Sequence record: NC_042564.1
DNA from: Escherichia phage Bf23
DNA: 14,504 bases
Reading direction: 5' to 3' (one strand)
Shown: positions 2,009 to 14,447 of the stretch, piece after piece
Layout of the letters: every line of letters begins with the position of its first letter
Numbering within the stretch: the first letter of the stretch is position 1
Position numbers and translations under genes: made by a program
Notes under the pieces: model-generated
Seen by the model: the letters and a program-made list of their open reading frames with translations, nothing else
Told to the model about the DNA's origin: nothing
Databases searched by the model: none

Positions 2009-2222
2009 CTTCGGATTCTCGTTGCTCAGCTACTGCTAGCCAGTCTGGTAAAAGAAACTTAGTACGAAACTCTTCATAAGATTCTTCTGGATAAAAGCTA
2101 AAACCTCCTTTCTCATCATTCAAGATAACAGAGCCGTCAGTTTGTTCATATGCTCGATATGTTTCTCCAATAATGATAACTCGCTTATCAGTACTTTTAT
2201 TACGAAACTCAAAAACGTGCAT
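2001..2222 (-). CDS. hypothetical protein, 73 aa
   Basis: ORF track; ATG at 2220-2222 with AAGGAAA SD. Confidence 0.5.
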   Translation of the reverse strand: MHVFEFRNKSTDKRVIIIGETYRAYEQTDGSVILNDEKGGFSFYPEESYEEFRTKFLLPDWLAVAEQRESEDG

Positions 2223-2238
2223 AACGTTTCCTTAAAGT

Positions 2239-2314
2239 TGGAGCGGCTAGAGGGAATCGAACCCTACTCAGCGAGGCTTGGAAGGCCTGCGACACAACCC
2301 GTGTGCTTAACCGC
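2239..2314 (-). tRNA. tRNA-Gly (anticodon TCC)
   Basis: encoded CCA, T-loop TTCGATT, anticodon loop CTTCCAA (plus-strand aggc/ttggaag/gcct), acceptor 2243-2249 pairs 2308-2314 with one G-U. Confidence 0.6.
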
Positions 2315-2322
2315 TTATTGTT

Positions 2323-2398
2323 TGGCTGGAGAAGGAGGAGTCGAACCTACCATTAACGGAGTCAAAGGCCATTGTGTTAACCGTTACACTACTCTCCA
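2323..2398 (-). tRNA. tRNA-Gln (anticodon TTG)
   Basis: encoded CCA, U1-A72 and G73 as in bacterial tRNA-Gln, D-stem GTGT/ACAC, anticodon loop CTTTGAC; anticodon stem has C31-U39 mismatch. Confidence 0.55.
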
Positions 2399-2404
2399 AT
2401 TATT

Positions 2405-2480
2405 TGGCTGGAGTGCCTGGGATCGAACCAGGAACCTTCGGAGTCAGAGGCCGACGATCTGCCAATTGATCTACACTCCA
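2405..2480 (-). tRNA. tRNA-Gln (anticodon CTG)
   Basis: encoded CCA, perfect T-arm cctgg/gatcgaa/ccagg, perfect 7-bp acceptor (2409-2415/2474-2480), D-stem GATC/GATC, anticodon loop CTCTGAC; same C31-U39 mismatch as its neighbour. Confidence 0.6.
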
Positions 2481-2489
2481 AGAATGCTA

Positions 2490-2726
2490 TTAACTAGACA
2501 CTGGTTCTGCTGGCTGAGATACGGCAGGCTGTTCTAATGTATCTGGTGCTGATACAGAGAAAAGAGCTTGTAATGCTGCAATATCACGCTCGTAAGTTTC
2601 AATACGAGTAGTAAGAGTATCTACCATCTGTTTATGATAGGCTAAGTTATTCTGAGATTCATCTCGAAGAGTTTGCAGTTCTGCAAGACGTGTTAACATA
2701 ATTTCACTAATTAAAGCATTACTCAT
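2490..2726 (-). CDS. hypothetical coiled-coil protein, 78 aa
   Basis: ORF track; ATG with AGGAGA SD; start overlaps stop of 2719-2916 (coupled). Confidence 0.5.
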   Translation of the reverse strand: MSNALISEIMLTRLAELQTLRDESQNNLAYHKQMVDTLTTRIETYERDIAALQALFSVSAPDTLEQPAVSQPAEPVSS

Positions 2727-2916
2727 TTGTTTCTCCTAAATTTTCCGGTTCTTCTAAACGTTTGCCTTCATGATCTACTCGAATAACTCCGCATCCTTCG
2801 CAAACCACAACTGCACCATAACCTTCTTTGACTTCGGCTTCTGTAATCAGACCAGATAAGTCACCAGTATCTCTGCCCCACATATCAATGGAGCATTGTT
2901 TGCAGAAATCAGCCAT
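2719..2916 (-). CDS. hypothetical zinc-ribbon-like protein (two CxxC pairs), 65 aa
   Basis: ORF track; ATG at 2914-2916 with AGGAAA SD; CKQC ... CEGC motif. Confidence 0.55.
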   Translation of the reverse strand: MADFCKQCSIDMWGRDTGDLSGLITEAEVKEGYGAVVVCEGCGVIRVDHEGKRLEEPENLGETNE

Positions 2917-9872: not shown

Positions 9873-9950
9873 TGGTGGCTCCCCGAGGATTCGAACCTAC
9901 GTACCTTCCAGTTATGAGCTGGGTGCTCATACCATATGAGCTTGAGAACC
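9873..9950 (-). tRNA. tRNA with anticodon CAT (Met, initiator or Ile2 type)
   Basis: encoded CCA, acceptor 9877-9883/9944-9950 with two G-U, D-arm gctc/gagc, anticodon loop CTCATAA; T-stem has only 3 good pairs. Confidence 0.5.
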
Positions 9951-13650: not shown

Positions 13651-14152
13651 TTTAAGTATTTTTAAGAACTCTCGTAAAAACTCTTAAAAATACAGACGAT
13701 ACCGGGAGAGTCATAAGTCTCACTCATTAAGTATTTCAAGACAAAATACAGTAACGTCTATTATTTTCCAGTTTAAGTCAAGGTGACTTAGTGGTTATGT
13801 CCTGCGGTATGCTGAGGACTCGGTTAGGCTAGGGTCATGACTCCCCACCTTTTTGCTGCTACTCAACAGGAGTTATCGCGAATTACCTGTGCTATTGTGC
13901 ACCATTAGTGGCATCTCTCATGCCAGCATTTCCCACTTTGTGGATAGTTTGAAAAACTACTCCGATATGGAGAAAGAACTTCACTATCCTAGAATACCTT
14001 CTAAAGTTCTTCTTTAGCCTGGACATAGTTAAATCGTAATAAAACTATTCAGCAGACTGGTTGGTTAGTCTGGAACCAACTACCGCGTGGTTTAGGCAGT
14101 GCGCAACTAACCTCGGAAGCTTTTACGTTAAAAGCATCAGTTATCCAGTTCT

Positions 14153-14224
14153 TACCGTCCGTAGGATTCGAACCTACATCTTCCACCAGTTACGGCTTGA
14201 TAATACCAATTATACTAGGACGGC
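14153..14224 (-). tRNA. tRNA-like gene, isotype undetermined (possible pseudogene)
   Basis: perfect T-arm gtagg/attcgaa/cctac (14161-14177) and 6-7 bp acceptor pairing (14154-14160/14218-14224) but no recognizable anticodon stem; CCA not encoded. Confidence 0.35.
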
Positions 14225-14447
14225 AGTGTTACTACATAAGTGATTTCCACACCCCACTATTTATAAATTAGAGAAGAGTTTAGGGGAGAGGTTTCAGACG
14301 CCCCATTTTATACGTTCTAGCCACTAACCGGGATTGCCGCCCCCTGTGTACTAGTTTTACAACTAACCCACCGACTCTATTCAGTGCACTCCGGTTGGGA
14401 TTCTGCACTCAGCGTAATCGGCTCGCTGTTCCCTAATTTATGAATAT

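Follow-up and report, generated by a model that had tools for sequence, protein, structure and literature searches.

Tandem tRNA-Gln genes of Escherichia phage BF23 share a maintained C31·U39 mismatch in the anticodon arm

Two tRNA-Gln genes that lie side by side in Escherichia phage BF23, with the anticodons CUG and UUG, carry the same mismatch, C31·U39, at the pair that closes the anticodon loop. The stretch of DNA analysed (the window; 14,504 nucleotides (nt) of the Escherichia phage Bf23 record NC_042564.1) is syntenic with the tRNA region of phage T5, and over the region queried it is matched at 100% by Escherichia phage BF23 OR083247.1. Both genes are intact and adopt the tRNA fold, the mismatch is close to fixation in T5-like phages that carry genes of the BF23 type, and it recurs in other phages and in cellular genomes. 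We lean towards reading these as functional tRNAs with a variant arm that is tolerated and maintained, for which no dedicated role is required.

A preliminary description of the window, made from its sequence alone, had proposed two Gln tRNAs with U1-A72 and G73 that differ in the wobble base and share the mismatch. ARAGORN and inspection of the sequence confirm both genes (Table 1) and the difference at the wobble base, and the C31·U39 mismatch is read directly in both sequences and flagged by the Rfam tRNA model RF00005. Each tRNA is a cloverleaf above the gathering threshold of that model, with a full-length match (1-71) that scores 58.5 bits for Gln(CUG) and 46.8 bits for Gln(UUG) against a gathering score of 29. 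In the alignment the innermost anticodon-stem pair is marked as non-standard in both; in place of five standard pairs the stem has four, followed by C31·U39, and only this terminal pair is affected. The 7-nt register of the anticodon loop, U33 and A37 are retained, and the T loop, G18-G19 and the CCA end are intact in both tRNAs. The arms read UCGGC CUCUGAC UCCGA in Gln(CUG) and AUGGC CUUUGAC UCCGU in Gln(UUG), the latter with a U28·G42 wobble. Common to both is the pattern G29-G30-C31 / C32-U33-N34-U35-G36-A37-C38 / U39-C40-C41, in which C31 stands opposite U39, and no others among the 23 tRNAs called by ARAGORN in the window have a non-standard 31-39 pair. In Gln(UUG) the model also flags 50-64, a second mismatch (U50·C64) that lies in the T stem.

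A better-paired fold assigned by a covariance model had been named in advance as the result that would speak against the mismatch. RF00005 gave no alternative register for either Gln tRNA, and because no better-paired register emerged, this test fails to refute the proposal. A shift of register that pairs G30 with U39 was rejected, as the 28-42 pair is lost. Minimum free energy folding of the single tRNAs returned non-cloverleaf or shifted structures with z-scores near 0, which is usual for tRNAs and uninformative; the cloverleaf with a four-base-pair arm lies at most 2 kcal/mol from the minimum.

The two genes are 64.5% identical in an optimal alignment. Pairs of unrelated BF23 tRNAs of comparable length reach such values (median 59.7%, 95th percentile 66.7%), and a recent tandem duplication was therefore rejected as the source of the shared mismatch. 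Conservation in both copies, as the preliminary description had worded it, holds for the mismatch and understates its oddness: since the genes are not sister copies, the shared 14-nt arm, with 13 of 14 bases in common over positions 29-42, is conspicuous. Only C31, C32 and C38 are phage-specific among the shared arm bases; G29, G30, U39, C40 and C41 are also present in the arm of host tRNA-Gln2.

Table 1. Features of the window, with positions counted from its first nucleotide.
Feature	Position	Strand	Remarks
tRNA-Gln(CUG)	2405..2480	-	76 nt, encoded CCA; ARAGORN; Rfam; annotated as tRNA-Gln(ctg) in OR083247
Gln(CUG) anticodon arm, positions 27-43	2438..2454	-	C31=2450, C34-U35-G36=2447..2445, U39=2442; sequence in covariance-model register
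Spacer between Gln(CUG) and Gln(UUG)	2399..2404	-	AAUAAU, 6 nt; sequence
tRNA-Gln(UUG)	2323..2398	-	76 nt, encoded CCA; ARAGORN; Rfam; annotated as tRNA-Gln(ttg) in OR083247
Gln(UUG) anticodon arm, positions 27-43	2356..2372	-	C31=2368, U34-U35-G36=2365..2363, U39=2360; sequence in covariance-model register
Gln(UUG) T-stem mismatch U50·C64	2349, 2335	-	
tRNA-Gly(UCC), third gene of the cluster	2239..2314	-	8 nt downstream of Gln(UUG); 100% identical to T5 tRNAG1
Small open reading frames upstream of the three tRNAs	2916..2719 and 2726..2490	-	
131-codon open reading frame, TTG start	2142..2537	+	antisense across all three tRNA genes
Rfam tRNA	9876-9950	-	38.2 bits; not called by ARAGORN
ARAGORN 'tRNA-Ser(act)'	14152-14225	-	two non-standard anticodon-stem pairs; Rfam 39.6 bits

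In a survey of about 30 sampled T5-like loci, several unrelated types of tRNA-Gln gene were found (Table 2). The Gln(CUG) of RN29 has only four differences from that of BF23, all of them at 31, 32, 39 and 40, and in VEc33 both 31 and 39 of Gln(UUG) are replaced and the mismatch persists as A·C. Two loci (L143, L145) have chimeric UUG genes, and in these the C·U allele of CUG stands beside a Watson-Crick UUG gene. The T5 genes tRNA-Gln1(UUG) (T5t05) and tRNA-Gln2(CUG) (T5t06) resemble those of BF23 in anticodon and in their slot in the syntenic cluster, upstream of an identical tRNA-Gly(UCC), and T5 Gln1 can, according to its record, be converted to an effective amber suppressor. They differ in that Gln1 has an unrelated backbone of 78 nt with C31-G39, A38 and a U1·U72 end, whereas Gln2, likewise unrelated, has two mismatched inner stem pairs and carries a pseudogene annotation. 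Because the T5 backbones are unrelated and lack C·U, the C·U arm is a feature of the BF23/EPS7 type and not of T5.

Table 2. Anticodon arms (positions 27-43) and 31-39 pairs of tRNA-Gln genes in T5-like phages.
Gene type	Phages	Arm	31-39
CUG, BF23/EPS7 type	majority of phages	UCGGC CUCUGAC UCCGA	C·U
CUG, same backbone as BF23	RN29	UCGGU UUCUGAC AUCGA	U-A
CUG, same backbone as BF23	HMD-7	UCGAU UUCUGAC AUCGA	U-A
CUG, related backbone	SB6, saus132	ACGGU UUCUGAC ACCGU	U-A
CUG, unrelated gene	T5 (pseudogene, overlapped by hegD), FFH1	different arm	U-A
UUG, BF23/EPS7 type	majority, Enterobacter phage KKP_3711	A(C/U)GGC CUUUGAC UCCGU	C·U
UUG, same backbone as BF23	VEc33	ACGGA CUUUGAC CCCGU	A·C
UUG, other type	T5, SB6, saus132, FFH1	UCGGC CUUUGAA GUCGA	C-G
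UUG, other type	RN29, HMD-7	GGAGA UUUUGAA UCUCU	A-U

Population counts were made by exact 28-mer megablast against the INPHARED phage genome collection, since a specific 24-mer retrieved only 19 loci from IMG/VR. By exact-word count, the C·U arm of CUG occurs in 313 phage records and that of UUG in 323, the 3' halves in 248 and 65 records for the two CUG backbone types and in 322 for UUG, and the A·C arm of VEc33 in two records of one phage. C·U is essentially fixed on the BF23-type CUG and UUG backbones. The alignment that the preliminary description had proposed as a check thus supports it in T5-like phages at large, T5 itself being without the mismatch, and not in the host, where the 31-39 pair of tRNA-Gln is Watson-Crick. 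As an observation apart from these counts, the tRNA-Gln genes of T5-like phages are mosaic, with four unrelated types and chimeric 5' and 3' halves (L143, L145), and the Gln(CUG) pseudogene of T5 is overlapped by hegD, which encodes an HNH endonuclease (L002, 2618-2693 and 2671-3252). Together these suggest exchange driven by homing endonucleases at the tRNA-Gln site of T5-like phages.

The remaining helices of both tRNAs are kept by compensatory substitution. For the CUG family, 11 distinct sequences were compared: standard pairs fill 97.8% of the pair cells, and both partners have been substituted at 11 of the 21 pairs; none of 500 shuffles reached the observed pairing, slid registers did not come close either, and all five unpaired cells are the C·U at 31-39. 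The UUG family, with only five distinct sequences, gives a weaker signal of the same kind. Here no member pairs 31 with 39 (C·U in four, A·C in one) and U50·C64 is invariant in all five members, including the divergent gene of KKP_3711, in which compensatory changes are found at 1-72, 6-67 and 12-23. Both tRNA genes are maintained, while the rule of pairing does not extend to 31-39. The irregularity had been called functional from the outset; this stands in the sense that it is maintained in working tRNA genes, and goes too far where it implies an established role for the mismatch itself.

For the host comparison, the E. coli tRNA-Gln genes were fetched and the CUG sequence was verified in 5,424 of 5,426 genomes. 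The host arms are CCGGU UUUUGAU ACCGG in tRNA-Gln1(UUG) (glnU/W) and CCGGA UUCUGAU UCCGG in tRNA-Gln2(CUG) (glnV/X). They share with BF23 the anticodons, the bases U1-A72, G2-C71, G3-C70, G10, G73 and A37, and the pairs G29-C41 and G30-C40. They differ from BF23 in the Watson-Crick 31-39 pair (U31-A39 in UUG, A31-U39 in CUG) and in U32 and U38, so that the phage arm departs from that of the host at 31, 32 and 38, and over the whole gene the identity is only 60-65%. Nine of the ten identity elements of glutaminyl-tRNA synthetase (GlnRS), as listed in PMC1483225, are intact in both phage tRNAs: U1-A72, G2-C71, G3-C70 and G73 (UGGAG... / ...CUCCA-G), and G10 (G10-C25 in both D stems), pyrimidine 34, U35, G36 and A37.

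Nearest-neighbour energies were calculated for the isolated arms; the '5 bp' values from ViennaRNA were disregarded where an arm is mismatched, as they then lack meaning. The predicted energies are -1.7 kcal/mol for the BF23 CUG arm and 0.0 kcal/mol for the UUG arm, as compared to -6.6 and -6.1 kcal/mol for the host CUG and UUG arms. Repair of the BF23 CUG arm to A31-U39 yields -4.2 kcal/mol. The predicted cost of C·U relative to A-U closure is thus about 2.5 kcal/mol, and the BF23 arms are 4-6 kcal/mol weaker than those of the host. The RN29 CUG arm, which is 'repaired' at 31-39 but has G30·U40, is predicted at -1.3 kcal/mol, and by these predictions every T5-like Gln arm examined is weak.

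The arm is not restricted to T5-like phages. A scan of IMG/VR for the arm together with the T loop returned 46 intact tRNA-Gln(UUG) loci with C·U, on 35 distinct backbones (median pairwise identity 0.70) and mostly outside the T5-like group; C·U in CUG, as seen in viral contigs, comes nearly all from the T5-like lineage. The UUG loci lie in tRNA-rich surroundings, with a median of 18.7 tRNAs per 10 kb as compared to 4.8 for A31-U39 loci (p=3.5e-9). When the rest of the arm was held fixed, the 31-39 pair in IMG/VR was A-U at no fewer than 121 loci, C-G at 67, C·U at 62, A·C at 14, C·C at 4, U·U at 3, G·U and C·A at 2 each, and A·A and A·G at 1 each. In phages C·U therefore about equals C-G in frequency and exceeds every other mismatch 4- to 60-fold, and it is far commoner than A·C even though A·C is one transition away from A-U. 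Its behaviour is that of a stable state intermediate to A-U and C-G. A neighbour-joining tree with parsimony required 17 state changes, as compared to 30.5 with shuffled labels, which suggests several switches between A31 and C31; the tree is rough, and 73-nt sequences are too weak to rely on.

The preliminary description had called the mismatch unusual. It is real, and less exotic than that term implies: in phage tRNAs, anticodon-stem mismatches concentrate at the terminal pairs (10-13% at 27-43, 3.5-9% at 31-39 and about 1% at inner pairs), and the same arm is found in cellular tRNA-Gln(CUG). The idea of an oddity specific to Gln is thereby partly rejected. A degenerate D-arm pattern proved too generic and drew in unrelated phage tRNAs, and those loci were reused as an unselected background. 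The other tRNAs of phages with C·U tRNA-Gln are mismatched at 31-39 in 9.6% of cases as compared to 3.5% at A31-U39 loci (p=3e-4; IMG/VR loci L236-L292), with Leu, Trp, Thr and His most affected. T5 has a tRNA-Leu(UAG) (L002, 4898-4982), a long-arm tRNA whose anticodon arm, ACGGC CUUAGAU UCCGU, has the same C31·U39 stem as Gln(UUG) of the EPS7 type; the arm of BF23 Leu(UAG) differs. This T5 tRNA is recorded in the T5 RefSeq entry as convertible to an amber suppressor, so a stem of this kind is able to function in E. coli. Another 31-39 mismatch that recurs within this virus family, A31·C39, was seen in several tRNAs (Thr, Trp, Leu) of two Vibrio T5-like phages (L009, L010; CUGGA...CCCAG, UCGGA...CCCGU).

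One genome per species (185,579 bacterial species genomes) was scanned with the pattern of arm plus T loop. Among the 86 loci found are 50 intact tRNA-Gln genes (49 CUG and 1 UUG; 25 distinct sequences), mostly in Bacillota (Erysipelotrichaceae, Christensenellaceae, Bacilli, Clostridia). The 49 CUG genes, with 24 distinct sequences, carry the arm NCGGC CUCUGAC UCCGN, identical to that of BF23 over 15-17 nt and including C31·U39, C32 and C38. A restriction of the feature to phages was consequently rejected for the CUG form; C·U in tRNA-Gln(UUG) occurs once among all the species genomes. The commonest bacterial sequence (Erysipelotrichaceae, Bacilli, Bacillales) is 77.6% identical to BF23 Gln(CUG), above any unrelated pair of BF23 tRNAs, and differs in the D arm and acceptor stem. 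Six of the cellular CUG genes stand in housekeeping arrays (Val-Tyr-Gln(UUG)-Lys-Leu-Gln(CUG), complete or partial) together with a UUG partner. Only the CUG isoacceptor is mismatched in these arrays, the partner having A31-U39 every time.

Most of the remaining bacterial loci are 3' halves of tRNA-Gln. A 3' half of tRNA-Gln(CUG) without its 5' half was seen at about 25 bacterial loci, many of them in Alphaproteobacteria, and in nine viral contigs; it follows unrelated sequence and sets in near position 28-31 with 'GGCCTCTGACTCCG...CCCCAGCCA' (bacterial loci L153, L156, L162, L196, L197, L199, L203, L210, L217, L223, L226, L230, L233 and L234; IMG/VR loci L237, L241, L243, L249, L259 and L292). 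Their appearance is that of attachment-site copies, as integrating elements that target tRNA-Gln would leave behind.

The reading of these data that we favour, by a modest measure of confidence, is that of working tRNAs whose variant arm is tolerated and kept. BF23 Gln(CUG) would read CAG and Gln(UUG) CAA, and the two would be co-transcribed and presumably both charged by the host GlnRS. Their arm would be a distinct, heritable variant of tRNA-Gln, in which four Watson-Crick or wobble pairs are followed by a C31·U39 that closes the loop on two G-C pairs, with C32 and C38 in place of the U32 and U38 of the host. C·U would then be a stable and well-tolerated intermediate between the A31-U39 and C31-G39 of related tRNAs, kept by selection on the whole arm rather than awaiting repair. 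Its physical effect would probably be a weaker and more flexible base of the anticodon stem. The phage would thereby possess its own decoders of CAA and CAG, with an arm unlike that of the host at 31, 32 and 38, and the likeliest benefit may be that Gln decoding continues if host tRNA-Gln is depleted or attacked.

Several points weigh against this reading. T5-like phages are closely related, so several hundred records amount to far fewer independent observations, and because repair of C·U requires a transversion, its persistence could in part be mutational inertia. The tenth GlnRS identity element, U38, is C38 in both Gln tRNAs; C38 is common in phage tRNA-Gln loops, often as CUUUGAC. The arm scans are conditioned on the surrounding arm, and their frequencies describe that arm context rather than all tRNA-Gln. 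In yeast, a 31-39 mismatch in tRNA-Gln(CUG) gives an unstable and poorly charged tRNA (PMC3664417). Finally, the expression, charging and flexibility of the BF23 tRNAs, and any benefit from them, are what we infer from their genes.

A specific benefit of the mismatch, be it nuclease evasion, GlnRS tuning or stop-codon wobble, is plausible. The first of these would make the phage arm, with C31·U39, C32 and C38, a poor substrate for host or prophage nucleases that act on the anticodon stem-loop, such that Gln decoding survives abortive infection. We consider this possible, if on balance unlikely. It has precedents in the same kind of cluster, where a few arm substitutions relative to the host suffice: the T5 tRNAs for Lys, Thr and Asn resist the PARIS nuclease AriB through anticodon-stem substitutions (PMC12409363), and a phage tRNA-Thr resists P2-OLD through a changed CNG motif and a shortened anticodon stem (PMC12445682), the loss of one stem pair (27-43) contributing to that resistance. 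For those tRNAs resistance and rescue were established by experiment; for BF23 tRNA-Gln they would be hypothetical. The study of P2-OLD lists Gln with the tRNAs that it discusses as cleaved or inactivated during interference (PMC12445682), and Ec2ApeA is reported in the literature to cut Gln anticodon loops in vitro. The confinement of the RN29 and BF23 differences to 31, 32, 39 and 40 is consistent with evasion, as are the association of C·U Gln(UUG) with tRNA-rich phages, its near-absence from bacterial species genomes and the richness in 31-39 mismatches of the other tRNAs in phages that carry it. Against it, no nuclease that reads 31-39 of tRNA-Gln is known, the documented stem shortening related to OLD affects 27-43 and not 31-39, and AriB leaves tRNA-Gln(UUG) uncut (PMC12409363). 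The CNG motifs C28-G29-G30 and C40-C41-G42 are moreover kept in BF23 Gln(CUG) and no more than half-lost (U28) in Gln(UUG), and the logic of evasion is not obvious for the housekeeping tRNA-Gln(CUG) of cells, mostly Bacillota, that use the identical arm.

A broader proposal, which we rate as more doubtful still, is that C31·U39 marks a distinct class of Gln tRNA that tRNA-rich phages have adopted repeatedly, selected for a loosened arm by way of nuclease escape or first-position wobble. Were the wobble version true, phages would possess natural weak suppressors of UAG and UAA and, with them, low-level programmed readthrough.

Decoding could also be tuned by the mismatch. In this account the loosened closing pair alters presentation of the anticodon on the ribosome, and so tunes affinity for the A site or permits low-level insertion of Gln at UAG (by CUG) or UAA (by UUG); we judge it improbable. 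The closest parallel is the yeast mutant sup70-65, a change of G31A that creates A31·C39 at the same position of the same tRNA species, loosens the foot of the anticodon stem and turns tRNA-Gln(CUG) into a single-copy UAG suppressor by first-base wobble (PMC3664417). Other yeast anticodon-stem mutations suppress likewise, with 4-9% readthrough (PMC3664417), and the same effect in E. coli is attributed to Schultz and Yarus 1994, as cited in PMC3664417. BF23 Gln(CUG) likewise combines a CUG anticodon with a disrupted 31-39 pair, C·U as compared to the A·C of yeast. The bacterial arrays that hold both isoacceptors, with the mismatch on CUG and a Watson-Crick UUG, point to an effect linked to the anticodon; the phage mismatch is mostly on UUG, the reverse of the bacterial pattern. 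The yeast tRNA is a laboratory mutant of a eukaryote, and its suppression comes at a cost in stability and charging (PMC3664417). For programmed readthrough in T5-like phages there is no evidence, and no search was made for it.

A comparably low probability attaches to discrimination between synthetases. Here the base C31 would be what is selected, as it favours GlnRS and disfavours lysyl-tRNA synthetase (LysRS), which reads the same U35, and U39 would remain since C·U is tolerated. According to Fukunaga et al. 2006, 31-39 changes shift acceptance by LysRS and GlnRS of E. coli in a seesaw-like manner, with C31-G39 giving the most Gln and the least Lys (PMC1483225). T5 Gln(UUG) has exactly this pair, and in phage Gln(UUG) genes with this arm C31 is common, C-G and C·U together standing beside the A-U loci counted above. 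That study, however, used transcripts of suppressor tRNA-Tyr and of tRNA-Lys with only paired 31-39 variants, and it proposed stem rigidity as the cause (PMC1483225), whereas a mismatch acts opposite to tightening. E. coli tRNA-Gln itself has A31-U39 or U31-A39, and VEc33 has A instead of C31 and is still mismatched.

Much less probable is a single neutral event, in which the arm had one origin and was then copied into the adjacent gene, either through short-patch gene conversion or through homing-endonuclease recombination, leaving the agreement of the two copies without independent weight. The Gln genes are 6 nt apart, the tRNA-Gln alleles of T5-like phages are mosaic, and hegD overlaps a Gln(CUG) pseudogene in T5, all of which would favour such an event. 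The identical block is just 14 nt long, however, without flanking homology for conversion; the same arm sits on dozens of unrelated phage and bacterial backbones; and in the two chimeric loci the CUG allele with C·U lies next to a Watson-Crick UUG gene. Decay into pseudogenes or sequencing error, for which the second mismatch and modest score of Gln(UUG) and the annotated T5 pseudogene might be cited, is rejected as effectively refuted by the same bases in more than 300 independently sequenced genomes, by compensatory change in all other helices and by the intact CCA end, T loop, G18-G19 and GlnRS identity elements, in agreement with the preliminary description, which had held the irregularity not to be a sequence error.

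Both Gln genes have themselves long been annotated: the BF23 genome paper lists tRNA-Gln(CUG) (PMC10644984), and a record from the 2004 era notes a gene of phage 5 as identical to its BF23 counterpart. Our literature searches turned up no account of a C31·U39 arm in tRNA-Gln, of how nearly fixed it is in T5-like phages or of where else it occurs, and no phage defence directed at tRNA-Gln. Phage tRNA clusters have recently been recast as counters to tRNA-cleaving immunity, with the T5-family tRNAs for Lys, Thr, Asn and Tyr as worked examples, and the Gln tRNAs have so far been unconnected to any such system. Near-fixation in T5-like phages, occurrence on about 35 phage backbones, a frequency like that of C-G and the rarity of the UUG form in cells make C31·U39 a candidate for a new determinant, whether of resistance to nucleases, of synthetase discrimination or of stop-codon wobble. 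Should it be simply tolerated, it is still a documented, stable non-Watson-Crick intermediate between A-U and C-G at 31-39, useful to tRNA gene finders and to the design of suppressor tRNAs. A terminal stem mismatch would by itself be no shock to a specialist; the distribution data turn it into a sharp and inexpensive experimental question.

Every tRNA gene of the window lies on the minus strand (ARAGORN, Rfam). A scan for sigma-70-like promoters and for terminators found neither on this strand between 1744 and 3028. Because no promoter-like site lies between them, the two Gln genes are presumably co-transcribed, and the Gln-Gln-Gly cluster is probably co-transcribed with its neighbours. The plus-strand open reading frame across the cluster is almost certainly spurious and probably an artefact of gene calling. 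In the record of EPS7 a similar plus-strand 'hypothetical protein' is annotated over the Gln tRNAs, and no tRNAs are annotated there.

The third gene of the cluster, tRNA-Gly(UCC), was aligned with T5 T5t04 and phage 5 tRNAG1. Neither ARAGORN, nor Rfam at the gathering threshold, nor the annotation of OR083247 reports it; its best Rfam match is tRNA-Sec at 30.9 bits, below threshold. According to the T5 RefSeq note, the T5 tRNA-Gly(UCC) is convertible to an effective amber suppressor. A putatively functional tRNA-Gly(UCC), intact in sequence and lacking in the current BF23 annotation, is thus recovered, and since it was missed, the number of tRNAs that the BF23 paper counts as missing relative to T5 may be too high.

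Two further loci of the window (Table 1) were noted in passing. The Rfam tRNA at 9876-9950 is directly downstream of tRNA-Ser(GCU), where T5 has tRNA-Ile2(CAU). The area of T5 that corresponds to the 'tRNA-Ser(act)' call is annotated with the stable RNA 'RNAX' beside tRNA-Arg, and the BF23 locus may be a tRNA-like RNA rather than a decoder.

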